From Candidatus Wolfebacteria bacterium RIFOXYB1_FULL_54_12 (lineage in GTDB: Bacteria; Patescibacteriota; Minisyncoccia; UBA6257; UBA9933), in assembly GCA_001793895.1 (NCBI GenBank), contig MGIT01000001.1:106508-170507 (forward strand): a stretch of DNA of 64,000 nt, given 5' to 3'. Position numbers and translations under genes: made by a program. The notes beneath the pieces were generated by a model. It did not search any database. It saw only the letters and a program-made list of their open reading frames with translations, and was not told the DNA's origin. How positions within the stretch are numbered: the first letter of the stretch is position 1; each line of letters begins with the position of its first letter. Below, piece after piece: positions 813 through 53,938 of the stretch.

Positions 813-1958
813 TCATAAATTCAAATCCCCATTCGCCTCAATTTTATACTTCTTGCCACGCAAATAGTCGATATATCCCGAAACGGCAATCATCAACGCA
901 TTATCGGTAGAAAATTCGCTCACGATCAACAGTGGTCGATCTTTCTTTAGCGTGAACTTCTTTTCGATTGCTTCCGTAAACAAAGCACGCAAGGTGCGGT
1001 TGGCCGAAACTCCGCCCGAGATCATAATGGACTTCGCACCGAATTCTTCTACCGCGCGGAGCGTCTTTTTGATCAGTACATCCGCCGCCGCCTTTTGAAA
1101 ACTCGCGGCAATATCCGCTTTCGGAATACTTTTCCCCGCTTTCGTCAGATCGCGGATATAATACAGCACAGAGGTCTTCAGGCCGGAAAAACTGAAATTA
1201 TAATTTTTATGCCCGATCATCGGACGCGGGAAATCGATCGCCATCGGGTTGCCATCTTTCGCCAAGCGTTCGATTTCAGGCCCGCCCGGATACGGGAGGC
1301 CAATCAAACGCGCAACCTTGTCGAACGCCTCCCCCACCGCATCGTCAACCGTCTCGCCCAATTTTTTAAAATGGGTCAGGTCGTCCATTCTCAACAAAAT
1401 GGTATGACCCCCGCTGATGATCAACGCGATCGCGGGGAATATCCCCGCATTGTCATTCCCGCGGAGGCGGGAATCCACATCCTTACTTACCAAAAAACTA
1501 TATAAGTGCCCCTCCAAATGATTAGTGGGCACCAGCGGCTTGCCATATTTGGCCGCAAGCTCCTTTGCAAATTCAATGCCGGTCCACAATGCAGGTTCCA
1601 AACCAGGCCCAACGGTCACGGTAATGAAATCTACCCGATTCATAAAATCAGCCTCCCCCGCATTGTCATTCCCGCCCTTCTCTTTGTCATTCCCGCGGAG
1701 GCGGGAATCCACCACTATTTTATCAACAATCTCTTTAAATAATAGTGGCAAATTCTCCAAATGCGCGCGCTTTGCCAATCCCGGCACTACGCCGCCATAC
1801 GGCTGGTGCAGCTTGATCTGCGACGCGACCACATCGCCATGTACCTCAAACTTCGGCTTTTCCAAACCCCCGCTCGCCGTAACAAAAGAAAGGGCTGTTT
1901 CATCACAGCTCGTTTCAATCGACAAGATATACACCTTTTGTTTCTTCTCTAAAGACAT
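813..1958 (-). CDS. tsaD: tRNA N6-adenosine threonylcarbamoyltransferase TsaD (Kae1/Gcp family). It carries two in-frame repeat-element insertions.
   Basis: The 381 aa ORF reads MSLEKKQKVYILSIETSCDETALS...HLEGHLYS...GGVSANRTLR. It is longer than a typical TsaD of about 340 aa. The extra segments VDSRLRGNDNAG and VDSRLRGNDKEKGGNDNAG are exact translations of the palindromic repeat. Confidence 0.9.
   Translation of the reverse strand: MSLEKKQKVYILSIETSCDETALSFVTASGGLEKPKFEVHGDVVASQIKLHQPYGGVVPGLAKRAHLENLPLLFKEIVDKIVVDSRLRGNDKEKGGNDNAGEADFMNRVDFITVTVGPGLEPALWTGIEFAKELAAKYGKPLVPTNHLEGHLYSFLVSKDVDSRLRGNDNAGIFPAIALIISGGHTILLRMDDLTHFKKLGETVDDAVGEAFDKVARLIGLPYPGGPEIERLAKDGNPMAIDFPRPMIGHKNYNFSFSGLKTSVLYYIRDLTKAGKSIPKADIAASFQKAAADVLIKKTLRAVEEFGAKSIMISGGVSANRTLRALFTEAIEKKFTLKKDRPLLIVSEFSTDNALMIAVSGYIDYLRGKKYKIEANGDLNL
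1451..1475. repeat. TGTCATTCC-family A-module inserted in frame in tsaD
   Basis: tgtcattcccgcggaggcgggaatc, which encodes DSRLRGND on the coding strand. Confidence 0.85.
1664..1709. repeat. TGTCATTCC-family A-module with a partial tandem duplication, inserted in frame in tsaD
   Basis: tgtcattcccgcccttctctttgtcattcccgcggaggcgggaatc. Confidence 0.85.
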
Positions 1959-2548: not shown

Positions 2549-5014
2549 TTATTTTGCTTTCTTGGCAAGTGCCGCCTCCTTCTCCGCGATAGCCATCGTA
2601 GTTTTTACCACCGTGTCGGGATTAAGCGAAATGCTTTCAATACCCGCTTCTACGAGAAACTGGGCAAAGTCCGGGTAATCGCTTGGTGCCTGTCCGCAAA
2701 TGCCGATATATTTCTTGCGGGCGATACACTTAGCAATCACATCCTTGATGAGTGTGGTTACTGCTTCATCCTTTTCGTTGGTGATATATTTAATCTTTTC
2801 ATTGCCGTCACGATCGATACCCACTGTCAGCTGGGTCAGATCGTTCGATCCAATACTCATGCCATCAAACACATCAAGAAACTTATCTGCCAAGATGACA
2901 TTTGCCGGGATTTCGCACATGACATAGGTGCGAATGCCGGTCTTTTTGCCAAGGCCGTTCTTTTCCATAATGGCAAGATTCTTTTTGCCTTCCTCGACGG
3001 TACGGCAAAACGGGATCATGACATGCACATTGTCCAAGCCCATAGCCTCGCGCACCTTTTTGATTGCCTTCAGCTCAAGCACGAATGCATCGGCAAAATC
3101 CGGATGATAATACCGCGAAGCCCCGCGCCAGCCGATCATCGGGTTTTCCTCCTTCGGTTCATACAGCTCACCGCCGATCAACGTACGGTATTCATTCGTT
3201 TTAAAATCGGAGAAACGTACGATGACCTGCTTCGGATAAAATGCCGCGCCGATCTTCGCAATGCCATAAGCAAGCTTATCGATATAGAACTGCACCTTGT
3301 CGTCGTAACCGACGGTCTTTTTGTCGATCTCGCCGACGATCTTCTTGGCGACCTTGTCGCCTTTCTTTGCCTGCGCCTGCAATTTCTTGTAGTTCAGCAA
3401 TGCGTTCGGGTGGATGCCAATCGAAGATGCAATGATGAATTCTTCACGTGCCAAACCAACGCCGCCATTCGGAAGGAACGATTTTTCAAACGCCGTATCC
3501 GGAGTCGCAATGTTCATCGTAATCTTTGTCTTCGTCTGCGGGATCTTTTTTACGTCATGCTCGCGCACGCTAAACTTCTTTGCGCCATCATAGACATATC
3601 CTTCGGTCCCTGCCGTATCAACGGTGACCAGCTTGCCGGTCTTGAGCTTTTTAGTCGCGTCAAGGCTGCCGACAATACACGGAATGCCGAGCTCGCGCGA
3701 CACAATGGCCGCATGCGATGTGCGCCCGCCCTTGTCGGTCACGATCGCGGAAGCGATCTTCATGATAGGCTCCCAATCCGGATCGGTCATGTCGGTCACC
3801 AACACTTCGCCCTGCTTGAACTGGGTAATATTCTTTACATTCATGATCATATGCACCTTGCCAGTCGCGATCTTGCTGCCCACGGAAATGCCCGTGACGA
3901 TCGGAGTGACCTTTTCTTCGAGCACATATTCCTTGACCTTGGTGAGGTCGCGTTCCGCGTGGATGGTTTCCGGTCGCGCCTGCACGATGAACAATTCACC
4001 GGTCTTGCCGTCGCGCGCCCATTCCATATCCATCGGAGTCCAACGATTGTGTACCTTGGTGTAGTGATCTTCGATCAGCACACCCCACTTTGCCAACTGC
4101 AAAACTTCCTTGTCATTCAATACAAATGAATTGCGCTCCTTCGGGCTTGTTTTTACGATCTTGGTCGACTTGGCACCCACGGACGTCGAGGTCATATAAA
4201 CCATTTTCGCATCCTTCGGCGCAAGCTTCTTGTCGATCACCGGATCCATGCCTCCGTTTTTGCCCGCCATCATCTCCTTCAAGCGCGGCTTGAATACCAA
4301 AAACTCATCGGGGGTCACTTCGCCCTGCACGATCATTTCACCCAAGCCCCACACAGCGTTGACCACGACCACATCTTTGAAGCCGGATTCGGTATCGAGC
4401 GTGAACATGACACCCGAGCTGCCAATATCGGAACGGACCATTTTTTGAACGCCCACGGACAAGGCCACCTTAAAGTGGTCGAAGCCCTTGTCGACGCGGT
4501 AGCTGGTTGCACGATCGGTAAAAAGTGACGCCATGGCGGCGCGCACGGCAAAAGAAACATCCTTTGCTCCACGGATGTTCAAAAAGGTTTCGTGCTCGCC
4601 GGCAAACGAAGCACCCGGAAGATCTTCGGCGGTCGCCGAAGAACGAACGGCAACATCTACATTCTTGCCGTATTTCTTTTCCATTTCACGATAGGCGTCT
4701 TCGATCTGCTTGCGCATATCGGCCGGAAACTCGGCTTTTTTGATCGCCTCGCGAATGAACTTGCACTTTTTCTGCAGTTGCGGAATATTCTTCGAATTAA
4801 GGTCCTTTAATGTGTCCTTGATCAACTTCTTCAAACCGGTCTCTTCCAAAAAATCGCGATAGGCTGTTGCCGTTACGATAAAACCGCCCGGGATGTTTAC
4901 CCCCTGCGGAACCAAGTGTTGTAGCATTTCGCCAAGCGATGCGTTTTTACCTCCAACCTCGCCGACATCATTGATGCCGACTTTGTCCATTTTCAGTGTA
5001 TATGATTTCTGCAT
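2549..5014 (-). CDS. ppsA: phosphoenolpyruvate synthase (pyruvate, water dikinase)
   Basis: 821 aa with an N-terminal ATP-grasp, the PEP-utilizing phospho-His motif GGRTSHAAIVSRELGIPCIVG, and a C-terminal PEP-binding TIM domain. Confidence 0.8.
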   Translation of the reverse strand: MQKSYTLKMDKVGINDVGEVGGKNASLGEMLQHLVPQGVNIPGGFIVTATAYRDFLEETGLKKLIKDTLKDLNSKNIPQLQKKCKFIREAIKKAEFPADMRKQIEDAYREMEKKYGKNVDVAVRSSATAEDLPGASFAGEHETFLNIRGAKDVSFAVRAAMASLFTDRATSYRVDKGFDHFKVALSVGVQKMVRSDIGSSGVMFTLDTESGFKDVVVVNAVWGLGEMIVQGEVTPDEFLVFKPRLKEMMAGKNGGMDPVIDKKLAPKDAKMVYMTSTSVGAKSTKIVKTSPKERNSFVLNDKEVLQLAKWGVLIEDHYTKVHNRWTPMDMEWARDGKTGELFIVQARPETIHAERDLTKVKEYVLEEKVTPIVTGISVGSKIATGKVHMIMNVKNITQFKQGEVLVTDMTDPDWEPIMKIASAIVTDKGGRTSHAAIVSRELGIPCIVGSLDATKKLKTGKLVTVDTAGTEGYVYDGAKKFSVREHDVKKIPQTKTKITMNIATPDTAFEKSFLPNGGVGLAREEFIIASSIGIHPNALLNYKKLQAQAKKGDKVAKKIVGEIDKKTVGYDDKVQFYIDKLAYGIAKIGAAFYPKQVIVRFSDFKTNEYRTLIGGELYEPKEENPMIGWRGASRYYHPDFADAFVLELKAIKKVREAMGLDNVHVMIPFCRTVEEGKKNLAIMEKNGLGKKTGIRTYVMCEIPANVILADKFLDVFDGMSIGSNDLTQLTVGIDRDGNEKIKYITNEKDEAVTTLIKDVIAKCIARKKYIGICGQAPSDYPDFAQFLVEAGIESISLNPDTVVKTTMAIAEKEAALAKKAK

Positions 5015-16073: not shown

Positions 16074-16117
16074 ATCACTTAAAGATACCTGAAGACCCTT
16101 AAAATGTCAACAGAATT

Positions 16118-16189
16118 GTCATTCCCGCGAAGGCGGGAATCCACTACGTTCATATAGATCCCTCCGCCAGTCGGCGGACGGGAATGACA
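16118..16189. repeat. TGTCATTCC nested-palindrome element (composite)
   Basis: tgtcattcccgcgaaggcgggaatc cactacgttcatatagatc cctccgccagtcggcggacgggaatgaca. Confidence 0.8.
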
Positions 16190-29026: not shown

Positions 29027-29088
29027 TGTCATTCCCGCGGAGGCGGGAATCTATTTAATACTGGATTCCCGCCTCCGCGGGAATGACA
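29027..29088. repeat. TGTCATTCC nested-palindrome element: canonical perfect composite
   Basis: tgtcattcccgcggaggcgggaatc tatttaatactgg attcccgcctccgcgggaatgaca. The terminal inverted repeats are perfect. Confidence 0.9.
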
Positions 29089-29106: not shown

Positions 29107-30843
29107 TTACAAATCCCCCTTCTCGCTCTTGTGTGGTTGCTTTGGTCGTTCTTCGGGGGTAGCTTCTTTTCTTTTTTGTAATGATTCTTCGATTGCCTTT
29201 TTCAGGTCATCAATATTGACCGCCTTTTTCTCGAACACATGTTTTGGCCTATCCTGCGGCATACTGCGAAGTCTATCGTCCATCGCTGGGCGATGCGGCA
29301 CAGGGCTGGCGCCACGATCTCCGCTAAATGGCCGCACGCTCGTCGGCCTATCGGTCAACGGCCCGTCCTGGGATGCCCGCGCAAACGACGGTCTGTCCTG
29401 CCTGCCCGCCGTAGTGTTAGCGGAGGAGGAATCCGCCGGCTGGCGGACGAAGGGTTTACGCTCGAAAGAAGGCTTCGGCGCTTGCGCACGAGGGGTTAGA
29501 GTCGAGCTCAACGACCGCTCGTCACGGCGCATAACCTTATCTGCCATGGATGTCTTACCCGACCCCATATATTCCTTGGCGATCATTTCATCCACCAACG
29601 CCTTAGGCATGGAATAATTTCTGCGGGAGTTTTCAATAATGACATCCTCGTAATTCGGCTGCGGGATTGGATACGGCGGCAAGGTCTCTGCCGAAAATGG
29701 TCTCGATGCCTGGCCGTCAACCAACAATTTAAGGTAAATATGCCGGTTTGACAAGCCGATCATATCTTGCGGCGTAAACTCGGGTTCGAATTCCTTTTCA
29801 AAAAATACGGCGTCGATGGCGCCAACGCGAAACATAGCCAAGGTGCCAATGTTGCCGACGATTGCCTCTGCAAGCCCTTCTTCTTTTTTAAGCTGATCGA
29901 CATACTGGTGGGCCAGCGTCAAGCCAAGTCCGTATTTGCGCGCCTCGGCGAAGATCTTCGTAAATGAACCGGTAGAAAAGTTTTGAAACTCGTCGATGTA
30001 CAAAAAGAACGGCCTGCGTTCGCTCTCGGGAATATCGATGCGGCTCATGGCGGCAAGCTGGATTTTGGTAATGATCATGGCGCCGAGCAATGCGGAATTG
30101 TCTTCGCCGAGACGGCCCTGCGAAAGATTGCAGATCAATATCTTGCCTTCATCCATTGCCTTGCGCATGTCGATGGTCGACTTCGGCTGGCCGATGATGT
30201 TACGGATGACCGGATTGGAACTGAACTGCCCTACCTTGTTCTGCAACGGTGCAATGGCCTCGGTCATGAACTTGTCGGTATATTTTGCAAATTCGTTTTC
30301 CCAGAACGACTTAATGACCGGGTCCTTTAAATTGGAAACGACCTTCAGGCGGTACTCTTTCTCCGCAAGCATGCGCATAATACTCAGTAAGGTCGTTCCC
30401 GGATATTCCAAAAGCGCCAACAGGGTATTGTTCAAAATATATTCCATGCGCGCAGACCATGCGTCCACCCAGATTTTTTGAAACACACCCATCACCGCCG
30501 ACGCGACAAGGTGCGCATGTTCGTCACCGACGCGTTCAAGCGGATTAAATCCGACCGGATTTTCGATATCGGCCGGATTGACATAAATGACATCCTTGAT
30601 GCGGTCTTCTGGCACATGCTTAAGCAACTCTTCGACGAATTCGCCATGCGGGTCGAGCACGGCAACACCAAATCCGTTCTTGATGTCGTTGATCATCAAG
30701 TTTTTCATCATGGTGGTCTTACCCGTGCCGCTCTTCCCGACGATGTACATATGCCGCAGGCGGTCGTTCATTTTGATGCCAAAATTAACGCTTTGATTGC
30801 GAAAATTCGTCTTTGCAAAAATTGAAATTTCTTTGTTGCTCAT
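29107..30843 (-). CDS. TraG/TraD/VirD4-family (type IV secretion coupling-protein-like) P-loop ATPase with a low-complexity C-terminal tail
   Basis: Walker A (IVGKSGTGKTT), Walker B-like (FLYIDEFQNF), and a C-terminal Pro/Ser/Arg-rich tail of about 150 aa. The alternative start at 30858 (MTNSPM) lies inside the repeat TIR. Confidence 0.6.
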   Translation of the reverse strand: MSNKEISIFAKTNFRNQSVNFGIKMNDRLRHMYIVGKSGTGKTTMMKNLMINDIKNGFGVAVLDPHGEFVEELLKHVPEDRIKDVIYVNPADIENPVGFNPLERVGDEHAHLVASAVMGVFQKIWVDAWSARMEYILNNTLLALLEYPGTTLLSIMRMLAEKEYRLKVVSNLKDPVIKSFWENEFAKYTDKFMTEAIAPLQNKVGQFSSNPVIRNIIGQPKSTIDMRKAMDEGKILICNLSQGRLGEDNSALLGAMIITKIQLAAMSRIDIPESERRPFFLYIDEFQNFSTGSFTKIFAEARKYGLGLTLAHQYVDQLKKEEGLAEAIVGNIGTLAMFRVGAIDAVFFEKEFEPEFTPQDMIGLSNRHIYLKLLVDGQASRPFSAETLPPYPIPQPNYEDVIIENSRRNYSMPKALVDEMIAKEYMGSGKTSMADKVMRRDERSLSSTLTPRAQAPKPSFERKPFVRQPADSSSANTTAGRQDRPSFARASQDGPLTDRPTSVRPFSGDRGASPVPHRPAMDDRLRSMPQDRPKHVFEKKAVNIDDLKKAIEESLQKRKEATPEERPKQPHKSEKGDL

Positions 30844-30852
30844 AGGGCTATT

Positions 30853-30990
30853 TGTCATTCCGAATTTATTTCGGAATCTCGTGGTAAAATGCCAAGATCC
30901 TGTATCCGTCAGCCGACGAACGGAAGGATCTGTTTTGCATTGTCATACCGGCGGGTGAGGGCCTGTCCTCGACCTGATCGGGGACCTGTC
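30853..30990. repeat. TGTCATTCC-family elements, degenerate cluster
   Basis: tgtcattccgaatttatttcggaatc ... atcctgtatccgtcagccgacgaacggaaggatc ... tgtcataccggcgggtgagggcc... Confidence 0.6.
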
Positions 30991-45326: not shown

Positions 45327-45412
45327 TGTCATTCCGAGCCTGCTGTCATCCTGAACTCGTTTCAGGATCTCGCGTACAAACAGTGAGCTTCTGAAATAAA
45401 TTCAGAATGACA
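45327..45412. repeat. TGTCATTCC nested-palindrome element: composite with an extra truncated left end
   Basis: tgtcattccgagcc tgctgtcatcctgaactcgtttcaggatc tcgcgtacaaacagtgag cttctgaaataaattcagaatgaca. Confidence 0.8.
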
Positions 45413-45471: not shown

Positions 45472-45496
45472 TGTCATTCCCGCGAAAGCGGGAATC
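45472..45496. repeat. TGTCATTCC-family solo A-module
   Basis: tgtcattcccgcgaaagcgggaatc. Confidence 0.8.
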
Positions 45497-47038: not shown

Positions 47039-47770
47039 TTATACCCTTTGATGATAGAATGTATCCACGATTAGGCGGTTATCGGGTTTCATTTCTCCGA
47101 TGACCGTCTTGTAAATGACCTCCGCGACATCTGCGGGCGTATGGTGCGCCTCTGTGCCTTTGAACAGTTCTTTGAACATGTTCGTCCCTACTGACCCGGG
47201 GGTAATGGTGATCACATCGATCCCCGACTGCACCAGCTCGGCCGACAACGCCTGCGTAAACGCGATCACGCCGGCCTTGGTCGCCGAATAGACGGCAAGC
47301 TCGGGAATGCCACAGAGTCCCGCTCCCGATGAAATATTAATGATGCATTTTCGTTTCACGGTACAACCGTCATGATCGGTTTCCGCAACGCCGGTATCCA
47401 TGCTCTTCAAAGCCTCCTGCGTAACAATAAACATGCCGCCCAGGTTCACATTGACCATGCTTTGCCACTCGGCTTCCGTCGTATCCGCAAATCGCTTGCG
47501 CTGGGCAACGCCCGCATTGTTGATAAGCACATCGATGCCGCCAAAACGCTTCTTCGCTTCCGCAATGGCAAGGGCGACCTGCGCCCGATCGCACACATCC
47601 CCTTCTATGACCAATGTGCGATCAATAGGAAGCGTCATCGCTTCCGAGCTTGTCGCACCATGGGAATAAATGACAACATTCGCACCTTCGGCAATGAACT
47701 TTTTCGCGGTTTCCAATCCGATGCCCGTCGCCCCACCGGTAATGAATACTGTCTTTCCTTTGATATCCAT
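47039..47770 (-). CDS. short-chain dehydrogenase/reductase (SDR) family oxidoreductase
   Basis: MDIKGKTVFITGGATGIGLETAKKF (TGxxxGxG), NNAG, and a YxxxK-like motif. The listed start at 47842 lies inside the repeat TIR. Confidence 0.8.
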   Translation of the reverse strand: MDIKGKTVFITGGATGIGLETAKKFIAEGANVVIYSHGATSSEAMTLPIDRTLVIEGDVCDRAQVALAIAEAKKRFGGIDVLINNAGVAQRKRFADTTEAEWQSMVNVNLGGMFIVTQEALKSMDTGVAETDHDGCTVKRKCIINISSGAGLCGIPELAVYSATKAGVIAFTQALSAELVQSGIDVITITPGSVGTNMFKELFKGTEAHHTPADVAEVIYKTVIGEMKPDNRLIVDTFYHQRV

Positions 47771-47796
47771 AATGGTATTAGTATAGCATAACTTTT

Positions 47797-47824
47797 TGTC
47801 ATTCCGGCGGAGGCCGGAATGACA
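47797..47824. repeat. TGTCATTCC-family minimal single-module element
   Basis: tgtcattccggcggaggccggaatgaca. Confidence 0.85.
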
Positions 47825-47836
47825 ACATAAGAAGTT

Positions 47837-47904
47837 TGTCATCCTGAACTCGTTTCAGGATCTCATGGTAGTGCGATGAGATTCCGGCCTCCGCCGGAAT
47901 GACA
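47837..47904. repeat. TGTCATTCC nested-palindrome element (composite, 18 bp spacer)
   Basis: tgtcatcctgaactcgtttcaggatc tcatggtagtgcgatgag attccggcctccgccggaatgaca. Confidence 0.85.
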
Positions 47905-48051: not shown

Positions 48052-48088
48052 GTCAAATAAAAAACGCCTATGGCGTTTTTTATTTGAC
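48052..48088 (-). terminator. rho-independent terminator (37 bp perfect palindrome) overlapping the rplK stop codon
   Basis: gtcaaataaaaaacgcc-tat-ggcgttttttatttgac. Confidence 0.65.
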
Positions 48089-49490: not shown

Positions 49491-51494
49491 TTAAGTTATA
49501 TCCAAGTTGCGCACCAATGTTGCATTTGACTGGATGAACTGCTTGCGTGGCGCGACTTCGTCGCCCATCAATATCTCAAACAATCGATCGGCTTCCTGAG
49601 CGTCATCGATCTCAACCTGAAGCAACGTACGGAACTCCGGATTCATAGTCGTTTCCCAAAGCTGGTCGGGGTTCATTTCACCAAGACCCTTATAGCGCTG
49701 CACATTTACGTTCGACTCGCTCTTTTTACCGGCGGTCATTTCCGAAACGGCCTTGTCTTTTTGCTCGGGCGTGTACACATAGCGCACATCCTTACCAAGC
49801 TGGAGGCGGAACAATGGCGGCTGTGCAATGTACAAGAAACCTCCATCGATCACCGGGCGGAAGAAACGATAGAACAAGGTCAATAACAATGTTCGAATGT
49901 GCGCTCCATCAGTATCGGCGTCGGTCATGATGACAACTTTATGGTACCGCAACTTCTCGATATCAAAGCTATCGGAAATGGCAGTGCCGAGCGCAATGAC
50001 CAATGACTTGATTTCGTTATTGACAAGCATCTTGTCGAGCCGCGCGCGCTCGACGTTCAAGATCTTTCCCTTAAGCGGAAGAATGGCCTGGAACCGGCGA
50101 TCACGACCCTGCTTGGCCGAGCCTCCGGCAGAATCGCCTTCGACTATGTACAGCTCGGAATCAGCAGCTTTGCGACTGGAACAATCGGCAAGCTTCCCCG
50201 GCAGAGTCATACCCTCGAGCATGCCTTTGCGCAACACGGTATCCTTTGCGGCTTTTGCGGCCTTACGGGCCTTTTGGGCCAAGATACATTTTTCGATGAT
50301 CGCTTTGCCATCACCCGAATATTTTTCAAAGTATTCCTTTAGCGCTTCAGAGAGCACGGACTCCACTGCTCCGCGCGCTGCCGGCGTTCCTAAGCGGGCC
50401 TTGGTCTGCCCCTCGAATTGCGGATCGCGCAGCTTCACGGAGATGATCGCCGTAATACCCTCGCGCACATCATCGCCGGTCAAGTTATCTTCCGTTCCTT
50501 TTAATGCATTTATGTTGCGCGCGAATTCATTCAACGCGCGCGTCAGGGCCGTGCGAAAACCGGTCACATGCATACCGCCATCCGATGTATAGATATTGTT
50601 TGCAAAACTCAACTCACGAGCATCAGGGTCGTCGTTATAAATAAATGCCGCCTCAACATCAATACTCTCGTAACTTTTATGCGCATAGAAAGTCTCCTTG
50701 TGCACTGGGGTATGATTGCGATTTACATAACGGACGAACGAAATAAGTCCCCCTTCAAAATAGAAGGAGTAATAGAATGGAAGATCCTCTCGATCATCAA
50801 CGATCTCGATGCGGATCCCTTTGGTCAAAAACGCCTGTTGGCGCAAATGGCTTACGATTTCTTTGCGGTCGAATTCGAGCGTGGAGAAAATGGACCCGTC
50901 CGGCTTAAATAAGACCTTTGTTCCGTTGGCCGTGCACTTACCCGCTTTCTTTACATCGTATTGCGGTTTGCCGATCTTATATTCCTGCACATACATCGTG
51001 CCTTCTTTGCACACTTCGATCTTCATCCATGTCGAAAGTGCGTTTACGACCGAAAGGCCCACGCCGTGCAGACCGCCGGAAACCTTGTACGAATCGCCGT
51101 CAAACTTACCGCCGGCATGTAATGTAGTAGCCGCGGTTTCGAGTGCGGATTTTTTTGTCTTCGGGTGAATGTCTACGGGGATACCGCGCCCATCGTCGGC
51201 AACCGTAACCGTGCCGTCTTTCAACAGCTCTACCTTAATGCTCTTGGCATACCCAGCCATGGCTTCATCGAGCGAGTTGTCAAACACCTCCCAGATCAAA
51301 TGATGCAATCCCTGTTCGCCGGTCGAACCGATATACATACCGGGGCGCTTGCGCACCGGCTCCAATCCTTCGAGTACCTGAATATCCTTCGCGCTATACG
51401 AAGCATTCCCCCTGTTGTCGGTCGGTTCGTCCAACTTTTTGGCAGCCGCTTTCCGAGGCTTTTCTTCTTCTATGTTTTCTGCTTTTTTCGCCAT
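49491..51494 (-). CDS. gyrB: DNA gyrase subunit B (short form of 667 aa)
   Basis: GHKL ATPase (LHHLIWEVFDNSLDEAMAGY), Toprim (EGDSAGGSAKQGRDRRFQAILPLKGKILNVE), and a C-terminal QFIQSNA. Confidence 0.85.
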   Translation of the reverse strand: MAKKAENIEEEKPRKAAAKKLDEPTDNRGNASYSAKDIQVLEGLEPVRKRPGMYIGSTGEQGLHHLIWEVFDNSLDEAMAGYAKSIKVELLKDGTVTVADDGRGIPVDIHPKTKKSALETAATTLHAGGKFDGDSYKVSGGLHGVGLSVVNALSTWMKIEVCKEGTMYVQEYKIGKPQYDVKKAGKCTANGTKVLFKPDGSIFSTLEFDRKEIVSHLRQQAFLTKGIRIEIVDDREDLPFYYSFYFEGGLISFVRYVNRNHTPVHKETFYAHKSYESIDVEAAFIYNDDPDARELSFANNIYTSDGGMHVTGFRTALTRALNEFARNINALKGTEDNLTGDDVREGITAIISVKLRDPQFEGQTKARLGTPAARGAVESVLSEALKEYFEKYSGDGKAIIEKCILAQKARKAAKAAKDTVLRKGMLEGMTLPGKLADCSSRKAADSELYIVEGDSAGGSAKQGRDRRFQAILPLKGKILNVERARLDKMLVNNEIKSLVIALGTAISDSFDIEKLRYHKVVIMTDADTDGAHIRTLLLTLFYRFFRPVIDGGFLYIAQPPLFRLQLGKDVRYVYTPEQKDKAVSEMTAGKKSESNVNVQRYKGLGEMNPDQLWETTMNPEFRTLLQVEIDDAQEADRLFEILMGDEVAPRKQFIQSNATLVRNLDIT

Positions 51495-51538
51495 GTCTTA
51501 GAAAATAAAAGGCCATTGTCTGGCGCTTATGTAAATTC

Positions 51539-51563
51539 TGTCATTCCCGCGGAGGCGGGAATC
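51539..51563. repeat. TGTCATTCC-family solo A-module upstream of gyrB
   Basis: tgtcattcccgcggaggcgggaatc. Confidence 0.8.
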
Positions 51564-51656
51564 CATTACCATTATGATAGCAAAAACGAGCCAAAAAAGC
51601 CAGCGGCCAGAGGAGTAAAGCCCCTTCAAAACAACCGGGACGCTACAACAAAAAAA

Positions 51657-51692
51657 GCCCGATGGCACACCCTATAAAGGTGCCCACCGGGC
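51657..51692 (-). terminator. candidate rho-independent terminator
   Basis: An imperfect hairpin, gcccgatggcacc...ggtgcccaccgggc, with a T7 run on the minus strand. Confidence 0.35.
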
Positions 51693-51714
51693 TTTGCCCT
51701 AAAAAGAAAGGGGG

Positions 51715-52329: not shown

Positions 52330-52426
52330 ACCCTCCTCTTTCTATGGATATATATGTAAAATAAGAGCTAACTCAAACTAACACCTGCGTTGCGCACTGT
52401 CAAACGATATTTAAAAAAATATTTTG

Positions 52427-52497
52427 AGCGGGTAAAGGGAATCGAACCCTCGCTTCAACCTTGGGAAGGTTGCGCACTACCACTATGCAATACCCGC
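52427..52497 (-). tRNA. tRNA-Gly (CCC)
   Basis: Reverse complement reads GCGGGTATTGCATAGTGGTAGTGCGCAACCTTCCCAAGGTTGAAGCGAGGGTTCGATTCCCTTTACCCGCT. The anticodon loop is ttCCCaa. Confidence 0.75.
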
Positions 52498-52880
52498 AAA
52501 AACGATACAGGCATTATAAAGAACAACCGGACAAAAGTGAAGTCATGGAAATAAAAAAACGACCTCTATGGTCGACGCGAATAAAGAAAACAAACCCGGT
52601 TGATGGCGATCGAACGAACCCAGTATTCCACGCAAGAAGAATGTAAGAATTCCCATATGAAATTGTCTGCCCATGCGCACAATAAAATACTGTATTTAGT
52701 ATAGGGCAACCAAATAAGATATACAACACCCGCACACCTTTTCTGTAACCCCGGCGGAGCTCGCCACGTGGAAAGTAGAAACTTTCTTTACGTGGGCCGG
52801 AGGAGTCCAGCGTTTTCCGCGATAGCGGTAGCTGGACATTCAGACCCTAACAATGCCGGGAATGACGATGCGAGATTGGG

Positions 52881-52987
52881 TGTCATCCCCGTCCGTCCGC
52901 CAGCCGGCGGACGGAGGGATCCATGGTTTTTGCAGTAGTAGGGCTGGGATACCCAGACTCTGGATTCCCGTTTTCACGGGAATGACA
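52881..52987. repeat. TGTCATTCC nested-palindrome element (composite, long spacer)
   Basis: tgtcatccccgtccgtccgccagccggcggacggagggatc ... gactctgg attcccgttttcacgggaatgaca. Confidence 0.75.
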
Positions 52988-53054
52988 ATACCGAGGTGAC
53001 AAAGCAAGAAAATACTCATACAAAAAGGTTGTGACCCCGGCGGAGCTCGCCACG

Positions 53055-53084
53055 TGGTCCGCCAATGGCGGATCGGAATGACAC
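53055..53084. repeat. TGTCATTCC-family right-end fragment
   Basis: tccgccaatggcggatcggaatgaca. Confidence 0.5.
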
Positions 53085-53151
53085 CATCCACGCATTGTCA
53101 TGTCGACGCCTACCCGCCTTGGTCGGGAAGGCCGGTATCCGGTGTCTTGCA

Positions 53152-53289
53152 TTGTCATTCCGAGAGTAGCGGAGCGGAGCCAAGGAATCTGTTTTTAGTA
53201 CGGATCCCTGCTCCACCTCCGCCAGCTGGCGGATATGGCGGCACGCGGTCGATTTAATTCCGCTTCGCTATATTGCACTCGGGATGACA
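53152..53289. repeat. TGTCATTCC-family element, degenerate long composite
   Basis: tgtcattccgagagtagcggagcggagccaaggaatc ... ctccgccagctggcggatatggcgg ... cgggatgaca. Confidence 0.55.
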
Positions 53290-53476
53290 GAAAGAACTGC
53301 TATCGAATTAGTAAACAATTTGCCGTGTTTATTACCACCGCTTGAATTCGTTTGGTATGCGCGTTAGCTAAGCAATAATTGACTACAGCCAATAAGTGTT
53401 CTATACTTGTTCTATATTAGAATAAATACATTGAATACTGCTCACGTTTTATTGTTCTATCTACGTTCTAACATAT

Positions 53477-53938
53477 ATGTCCATAACAAAAACACAAAAA
53501 CAAATATTGGATATCTTTGAAAAAAATGGCGGGGCACTTCCTTCGTTTCGCGAAATAGCCCGTCAGATTGGAGTGTCGTCGACAAACACTGTCTCCTATC
53601 ATATAGAGCGCCTGCGAAAGAATGGCTACCTCGATATCGGACACTCCCCCCAAGGGATGGCAAACCTGTCACTTAAAACGATTCTTGCCTTGGATGCGAA
53701 GCCGGGAGTCTACGTGGTTCTCTGCGCGAACAAACCATTTTATATTGGGTCGTCCACGAACATCCGAAAGGACATTCTTGAAACGGTCATTGGCATAGAC
53801 CGGTCCCCGTTTCCACAGATCGTCGGCAAGCCGGAAGAACTGTCCATTGCCTACCACATCATCGAAAGCGAACCCGAACGGGCCGACCTCAAACAATACC
53901 TGCTCGAATTTTACCAAGCCAAGGGCATCGACATATGA
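53477..53938 (+). CDS. LexA-like winged-HTH DNA-binding domain fused to a GIY-YIG nuclease domain
   Basis: The N-terminus LTKTQKQILDIFEKNGGALPSFREIARQIGVSSTNTVSYHIERLRKNGYL resembles the LexA N-domain. The C-terminus carries GVYVVLCANKPFYIGSSTNIRKDI (GIY-YIG). Confidence 0.55.
   Translation: MSITKTQKQILDIFEKNGGALPSFREIARQIGVSSTNTVSYHIERLRKNGYLDIGHSPQGMANLSLKTILALDAKPGVYVVLCANKPFYIGSSTNIRKDILETVIGIDRSPFPQIVGKPEELSIAYHIIESEPERADLKQYLLEFYQAKGIDI

Follow-up and report, generated by a model that had tools for sequence, protein, structure and literature searches.

We analysed a 64,000-nt stretch (hereafter the window) of contig MGIT01000001.1 from Candidatus Wolfebacteria bacterium RIFOXYB1_FULL_54_12, in which the gap between a tRNA-Gly gene and a gene for a LexA-like protein holds, over 52744-53289, a cluster of hairpin repeats resembling repetitive extragenic palindromes (REPs). 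The window sequence is also present as scaffold_93 of ERZ28563683, a Rifle aquifer groundwater metagenome, and as MGIU01000011 in GCA_001793905.1, and the matching records carry the organism name Candidatus Wolfebacteria bacterium RIFOXYB2_FULL_49_7. At 979 nt the gap (52498-53476) is the longest intergenic spacer of the window, the runner-up being 310 nt, and its G+C content is 54-57% over the repeats versus 32-45% in the remainder. A promoter-like site of the lexA-like gene lies at 53379-53407 and a minus-strand promoter-like block begins near 52700, which places the cluster upstream of both of these diverging sites. No T-run follows the cluster hairpins. Open reading frames (ORFs) of at most 91 aa span the repeats and the largest of those crossing them (52883-53158, 91 aa) has no Pfam match; with no credible ORF, the region is non-coding, as the initial annotation had held. 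The features are listed below, where L002 is a closely related strain and the sister species is RIFOXYD12_FULL_48_21.

52426-52497, minus strand: tRNA-Gly(CCC), left boundary of the gap, with its 5' side toward the repeats
52744-52868: E1, a 125-nt composite element with left end TGTAACCCCGGCGG and right end CCGGGAATGACG
52744-52771, plus strand: 28-nt copy 1 of the direct repeat (exact over the 24 nt that start at 52748), also the left end of E1
52748-53033: segment absent from strain L002, comprising one direct-repeat copy and all that lies between the copies
52881-52987: E2, an inverted dimer of two units with tags outward, like a REPIN (REP doublet forming a hairpin)
52988-53029: A-rich spacer with no structure, also conserved in the sister species
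53030-53083: E3, a truncated element of 54 nt with direct-repeat head, hairpin and tag
53030-53057, plus strand: direct repeat, copy 2; the pieces of the L002 BLAST alignment overlap by exactly this repeat
53092-53152: E4, a degenerate piece (repeat family D4; fold z = -0.85)
53153-53289: E5, a 137-nt composite like a miniature inverted-repeat transposable element, with 12-nt terminal inverted repeats TGTCATTCCGAG / CTCGGGATGACA
53477-53938, plus strand: gene for a 153-aa protein with a LexA-type winged helix and a UvrC-like GIY-YIG fold, right boundary of the gap

Tagged hairpin units and the make-up of the cluster

The unit from which the cluster is built has a (T/C)GTC tag, an 8-bp stem opening A-T, T-A, a loop of 4-6 nt and a C-rich 3' tail, and its commonest form reads TGTC-ATTCCCGC-GGAG-GCGGGAAT-CC. 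Allowing up to one mismatch, TGTCATTCC occurs 52 times in the window (24 exact) relative to 16.2 +/- 3.5 times in dinucleotide shuffles, which bears out the suggestion that the repeats of this gap are shared with a family elsewhere in the window. GTCA-anchored hairpins are likewise enriched, with 28 in the window versus 2.5 +/- 1.8 in shuffles. For a covariation test, copies were chosen only by the tag, the first five stem bases and a matching closing pentamer. Stem positions 6-8 pair in 26 of 30 such copies (G-T counted), position 9 being unpaired, and each of these positions shows two to four pair types (G-C/C-G at position 6, G-C/A-T/T-A at position 7, C-G/A-T/T-A/G-C at position 8). Since these unselected positions pair with varied pair types, it is the hairpin that is conserved, not the sequence alone. 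About 28 of 39 tag octamers fall within the ~10% intergenic share of the window (a spurious repeat ORF discounted). Inverted pairs within 130 nt, with tags outward, are common (29027-29088, 2381-2456, 16117-16189 and E2), and some units sit inside another's loop (45327-45412 and E1), with composites measuring 54-137 nt.

Within 52744-53289 five elements (E1-E5) are built from this unit. All four repeat copies listed in the initial annotation are present. Its direct repeat of 25 bp is also real, although the coordinates were off by one and the exact match is 24 nt (52748-52771 and 53034-53057), lengthening to 28 nt with one mismatch (52744-52771 and 53030-53057). Two features go beyond that annotation, namely that the first repeat copy is the left end of E1 and that a degenerate fifth piece, E4, is present. 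The tag is of the CGTC type at 52859-52867 (CGTCATTCC, minus strand) and of the TGTC type at 52881, 52979, 53075 and 53153.

The elements differ in how intact they are. The left end of E1, TGTAACCCCGGCGG, is a variant of the sister-species TGTCACCCCGGCGG unit with a nested hairpin in its loop, and its right end is a minus-strand CGTC-tagged unit; as single-stranded DNA (ssDNA) E1 folds at -28.1 kcal/mol (z = -4.2 relative to shuffles), and its pieces recur in the sister-species locus L137 at 3581-3604 and 3475-3487. E2, which runs from TGTCATCCC through GGAATGACA, has a left unit (52881-52921, plus strand) with a 15-bp stem enclosing a TCCGCC-N4-GGCGGA hairpin and a canonical right unit (52960-52987, minus strand) composed of TGTC, ATTCCCGT, GAAA, ACGGGAAT and CCAG; its ssDNA fold is -30 kcal/mol (z = -5.75 relative to shuffles). 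E3 consists, in order, of the direct-repeat head, a TCCGCC-AAT-GGCGGA hairpin and the exact minus-strand tag GGAATGACA (53075-53083), and its fold is not significant (z = -0.84). In E4, GCATTGTCATGTCGA repeats the E5 head GCATTGTCATTCCGA and the unit hairpin does not follow. E5 is the second inverted pair of the region, with a 40-nt internal insert that holds TCCGCC-N4-GGCGGA and an ssDNA fold of -30.7 kcal/mol (z = -3.8 relative to shuffles); the sister species has its orthologue at L137 3699-3806 and, elsewhere in its genome, a paralogue at L134 5102-5197. Several of the region's units are thus nested or truncated and they occupy the window's longest spacer, which agrees with the earlier view of the gap as an accumulation hotspot.

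Units are also found inside genes. The essential gene tsaD (813-1958, minus strand) carries two in-frame hairpin-unit insertions, at about 1451-1480 and 1664-1710, which encode the peptides ...DSRLRGNDKEKGGNDNAGEA... and ...DSRLRGNDNAG...; Thermotoga maritima TsaD (6n9a) has no counterpart of residues 81-106 and 158-170, which are purely inserted. Thirteen contigs encode exactly the same 381-aa product, and the insertions are therefore fixed in the population. They resemble the Rickettsia palindromic elements (RPEs), here in a minimal genome of the candidate phyla radiation (CPR). A short-chain dehydrogenase gene (47039-47842, minus strand; predicted N-terminus MTNFLCCHSGLRRND) and a TraG/VirD4-like ATPase gene (29107-30858, minus strand; predicted N-terminus MTNSPM...) both extend into hairpin units at their predicted starts, and the true start of each is probably the next Met. 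The ATPase gene also has a TCCGCCAGCCGGCGGA hairpin within its C-terminal low-complexity tail (29432-29449).

Published repeat families and the Ssn-like gene

Di Nocera et al. (2013, PMC3733652) described CGTC-tagged REPs, in which the tag is often TGTC, and defined their family 1 (CGTC-1) by an 8-bp stem starting with AT, a 4-nt loop and a CCA tail; this family is the same as dRS3 in Neisseria and RPE-6 in Rickettsia conorii. The same study reports that CGTC REPs form clusters in Neisseria and Wolbachia and have in-frame copies within genes, that no transposase dedicated to them was found and that no IS200 or REP-associated tyrosine transposase (RAYT) gene is flanked by CGTC units. The units described here agree with that definition. 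Canonical copies have TGTC or CGTC ahead of the stem, the stems ATTCCCGC/GCGGGAAT (loop GGAG) and ATTCCCGT/ACGGGAAT (loop GAAA, 52962-52986) have the expected length, start and loop, and the tails read CC or CT and then A, as in GGGAATCCAG and GGGAATCCAC. The copy at 52960-52987 combines the TGTC tag, the 8-bp stem starting with AT, the 4-nt loop and the CCA tail, and some window subfamilies have loops of 5-6 nt. The likeness extends to inverted dimers, clusters and in-frame genic copies, the last represented here by tsaD. One difference lies in the host, as the published survey covered five phyla and no CPR, whereas the host here is a CPR member.

A second description of the family is that of Chenal et al. 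(2025, PMC11893778), who extended dRS3 to a 28-nt sequence named NTS, CGTCATTCCCGCGMAVGCGGGAATCYRG, and to a degenerate Ssn-related motif (SRM). In their work SsnA, a 94-aa GIY-YIG protein, binds the hairpin only as ssDNA and cuts a few bases upstream of it, does not interact with the RNA form and lowers transformation by NTS-bearing DNA, and ssn genes are typically flanked by the motif. In the window, the copy at 45472 is one nt off the NTS consensus, from which nine copies differ at no more than three positions. The strict SRM pattern, HGTCWYN(0-2)YYVSBRHN(0-5)WNVSBRGN(0-2)RNCYNB, has four window matches versus 0.14 in shuffles, one of which is the right unit of E2 at 52960-52987. The units are like NTS/SRM in their sequence, in forming an oriented hairpin whose 5' tag and 3' C are conserved, and in clustering. 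They differ in that the commonest variant, with the GGAG loop, fails the SRM pattern at its W position, and in that the host phylum, Patescibacteria/CPR, is unmentioned in that paper.

The family is also found well beyond this genome. An exact 25-mer, TGTCATTCCCGCGGAGGCGGGAATC, recurs across many phyla, in over 118 genome stretches, with hosts among the Proteobacteria, Rickettsiales, Planctomycetota, Desulfobacterota, Chloroflexota, Cloacimonadota, Bdellovibrionota and Omnitrophota, a cyanobacterium and others; CPR/Patescibacteria make up 33 of 118 loci (about 28%) among the matches listed, the set to which the following gene counts also refer. ORFs lying up to 400 nt from the 25-mer were all clustered, with no candidate chosen beforehand. 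The only recurrent non-housekeeping family near it is a ~95-aa GIY-YIG protein, found at four of the 118 loci at a distance of 10-71 nt, and a gene for this protein lies within the 8-kb block at six loci, including one genome of Moraniibacteriota (CPR). No recurrent transposase or RAYT-like family was found near the 25-mer at these loci. At E<=1e-10 the Ssn-like protein family numbers at least 7,962 members; Y6, Y17 and E64 are invariant in its profile, and mutation of the matching residues of SsnA abolished cleavage (PMC11893778). No SsnA structure was found in the PDB, and a literature search returned no paper that ties Rickettsia palindromic elements to GIY-YIG.

In the sister species the published NTS-ssn-NTS layout (PMC11893778) is reproduced by an intact gene of 93 aa, P0019, which has a single PF01541 domain, lies between rpsI and tsaE and has units on both sides. 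The neighbouring tsaE (L134 4318-4944) itself contains in-frame unit sequence at 4640-4720, GTCATCCCcgcgcgcattgtcataccggcggaggccggtatcc.

We conclude, with a probability of roughly 0.8, that 52744-53289 holds a mosaic cluster of REP-type hairpin repeats with CGTC/TGTC tags, of the kind known as CGTC-1, dRS3/NTS, RPE-6 and SRM, a family that the initial annotation had not recognised. The cluster is decaying yet still recombining, and it is the same kind of mosaic as the Neisseria clusters. The Neisserial intergenic mosaic elements (NIMEs) are arrays of dRS3-type hairpins with variable segments between them and are tied to local sequence variability. The cluster resembles NIMEs in its hairpin arrays and variable segments, a likeness by description that draws on the dRS3 statements in PMC11893778. 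By analogy with the SsnA results (PMC11893778), the hairpin would be bound in single-stranded form by a cognate ~94-aa Ssn and cut a few bases 5' of the tag, and the host would possess an Ssn that acts on these copies. The cluster itself would have no job for the two flanking genes; its units would have gathered, decayed and recombined in a permissive spacer between diverging promoters.

Several observations weigh against this conclusion. Just one unit of the region fits the strict SRM pattern, and the local hairpin is intact at only two of six region tags (four of six lack it), as opposed to most tags elsewhere in the window. Published CGTC REPs are mostly downstream of genes (PMC3733652), whereas this cluster lies between diverging genes. 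Association with an ssn gene is seen in relatives and in other phyla and not in the host DNA at hand, as tblastn found no Ssn homologue in ~74 kb of the ~1-Mb genome (the window plus ~10 kb to its left, L148/L149), nor in other host loci. The membership of P0019 in the Ssn family has indirect support, from its size, domain, catalytic-residue positions and flanking units rather than from an alignment with SsnA. Finally, a REPIN/RAYT reading has been published for the Neisseria repeat, which Bertels and Rainey assigned to a group-2 RAYT.

Turnover of the locus and competing explanations

Among relatives the gene order gyrB, a variable gap with tRNA-Gly, the lexA-like gene and a GT4 gene is conserved. 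In the sister species (loci L013, L014 and L137-L142) the flanks are 83-85% identical and the repeat zone consists of permuted scraps save for the right end of E5. Thus the comparison of the orthologous tRNA-Gly flank that the initial annotation had proposed as a check revealed a variable gap with a rearranged repeat zone. Loci L011/L012 (71% protein identity) have an ssn-like frame plus two units in the orthologous gap, and a stop at the third codon of that frame suggests decay. No units are present at the locus in L009 (83%) and L146 (62%). In L011 the position of the host's 204-aa ORF is taken by a 247-aa ORF with no homology to it. Sister-species gyrB (L013, L137, L138) codes for 1099 aa with an intein (PF14890), and the window gyrB codes for 667 aa with none.

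Evidence that the cluster is still recombining comes from a comparison of strains. An identical neighbouring protein is found on eight contigs from different samples, seven of which match the window. The eighth, L002, is 99.9% identical over 9.6 kb and lacks exactly 286 nt. Homologues of two parts of that segment, the E2 right end and the spacer, survive in the sister species, and the short L002 allele is therefore most simply read as a derived deletion that arose when the 24-nt repeats recombined or slipped. We treat this allele as real since a 24-nt repeat should be too short to collapse an assembly made at k=141. The earlier label of repeat graveyard is fair for part of the region, given the two of six tags with an intact hairpin, and the region continues to recombine. 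A separate mismatch in the NCBI version of this metagenome-assembled genome (MAG), where L005 3936-4229 (window about 51412-51705) does not align on either side of the unit at 51539, probably reflects a gap in assembly or scaffolding at the repeat.

The neighbouring 153-aa protein has a LexA-type DNA-binding domain in which a UvrC-like GIY-YIG fold replaces the LexA peptidase domain. Its AlphaFold model has a pLDDT of 87, and the UvrC N-domain is the nearest fold both in Foldseek (TM 0.63-0.67, target-normalised) and at the sequence level. The usual catalytic Tyr, Arg and Glu positions (Y89, R97, E130) vary among its homologues, 17 of which were found, the named ones being from Wolfebacteria or Patescibacteria. 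We considered this protein as an Ssn member and rejected it, given its two domains, its variable catalytic positions and an HHalign probability of 2% against the Ssn family. Just upstream of its gene are two GTTCTA-N5-GTTCTA direct-repeat pairs (53397-53414 and 53453-53470), which overlap the promoter-like site and are retained by every relative of 62% protein identity or more and, in part, at 42%. These pairs are likely the operator of the winged-helix protein.

Left of the repeats, a non-coding block at 52545-52745 (minus strand) is conserved between the tRNA and the cluster. It contains a palindrome, ATACT-N6-AGTAT (52687-52702), followed by TTTTAT, a near-invariant core ATTCTTCTTGCGYRGAAYA (about 52600-52665) and a terminator-like hairpin with T-run at 52574-52550, and it is kept in five lineages, two of them with an inverted tRNA. 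It lacks an Rfam match, a conserved start codon and a fold signal (z = +0.9), and a metagenome scan with the block returned the sister species alone. The block may be a clade-specific small RNA or regulatory site. Elsewhere in the window, a perfect 14-bp palindrome at 48052-48088, AAATAAAAAACGCC-TATG-GGCGTTTTTTATTT, has T/A runs flanking it on both strands and looks like a bidirectional terminator.

Other explanations of the cluster rest on its structural features or on its two neighbours. The units might be REPINs copied by a RAYT, as proposed for the Neisseria ATTCCCGCGCAGGCGGGAATC repeat, with the cluster made of decaying REPINs. The many inverted pairs within 130 nt, E2 included, fit this explanation, and the cluster shares inverted REP doublets, mosaic structure and inter-copy recombination with REPIN-RAYT systems and bacterial interspersed mosaic elements. 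However, the tag is CGTC/TGTC and not GTAG, and at the 118 loci of the 25-mer it is the Ssn-like gene that recurs and not a RAYT-like family. Furthermore, the published survey found no IS200/RAYT gene flanked by CGTC units (PMC3733652), and no Y1 transposase is among the Pfam-annotated genes of window positions ~19-60 kb and the ~10 kb of contig to the left, so we consider the REPIN explanation unlikely. A role of the hairpins as RNA, as terminators, insulators, transcript stabilisers or a structured small RNA, would draw on E1, E2 and E5 folding much better than shuffles and on the published view that REPs elsewhere are often transcribed and that many act as RNA elements (PMC3733652). The position of the cluster upstream of both diverging promoter-like sites argues against such a role, as do the absence of a T-run after the hairpins and the failure of SsnA to interact with the RNA form (PMC11893778). 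A conserved structured RNA, which the initial annotation had named as the alternative to its own interpretation, is contradicted by the lack of a meaningful Rfam match in the repeat region (at the gathering threshold and at E<=10) and of conservation of the orthologous sequence in the 83-85% identical relative, the units being absent altogether in L009 and L146. An RNA-level role is thus quite improbable.

The two flanking genes suggest further explanations. The initial annotation had also raised the possibility that the region is the remnant of an element integrated beside the tRNA. The gyrB-lexA-like gap does vary among relatives, and partial second tRNA-Gly 3' ends (tccctttacccgctca) are present in L011/L012 (about 3863-3880) and L146 (about 1668-1695), where they lie downstream of a plus-strand tRNA and bracket extra genes, a signature of small elements integrated at tRNA-Gly in those lineages. 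In the window, however, the tRNA is on the minus strand and the repeats are thus on its 5' side, the tRNA 3' 20-mer (up to three mismatches) occurs once, no integrase is nearby and the content of the region is a genome-wide hairpin family and not unique cargo. A tRNA-Gly integration scar is therefore the least credible of these explanations. The cluster might instead be a binding array for the LexA-like protein, with this fusion of a winged helix-turn-helix (wHTH) and a GIY-YIG fold acting as a CPR-specific partner of the repeats. The gene adjoins unit clusters in three related lineages and its C-terminal GIY-YIG fold is confidently predicted. Against this stand the 2% Ssn profile comparison, the unconserved Y89, R97 and E130, the homologues in L009, L146 and L143 that have no units upstream, and the gene's own conserved operator-like GTTCTA pairs, and we regard a binding array as very unlikely. 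We also rejected attC/integron and clustered regularly interspaced short palindromic repeat (CRISPR) readings, because there is no regular spacing and no integrase and the unit architecture differs.

What the cluster means for the host and its relatives

A bolder possibility, in which we place little confidence, is that units and Ssn would form a system that processes incoming or replicating ssDNA in these ultra-small, presumably DNA-scavenging CPR bacteria, with the clusters as maintained hotspots of recombination or cleavage and the LexA-wHTH/GIY-YIG protein, whose gene keeps its place beside them in synteny, as a second partner specific to the lineage. If true, a CPR hairpin/Ssn system would parallel NTS/SsnA in Neisseria transformation, and the clusters would not be junk.

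Taken as a mosaic cluster of tagged REP-type hairpins, the region is of a kind of biology already described and not of a new kind. With this identification the commonest repeat of the genome receives a name and a link to a published mechanism, and the hosts of the dRS3/NTS/CGTC-REP family and its Ssn-like gene now include Wolfebacteria as well as many other CPR lineages. It also accounts for several oddities that annotators of CPR MAGs encounter constantly, namely spurious small ORFs (with motifs like DSRLRGND), unexpectedly long spacers, assembly gaps at repeats and short in-frame insertions in essential genes. Finally, the 286-nt strain-level deletion shows that recombination is still acting on clusters of this sort in natural populations.

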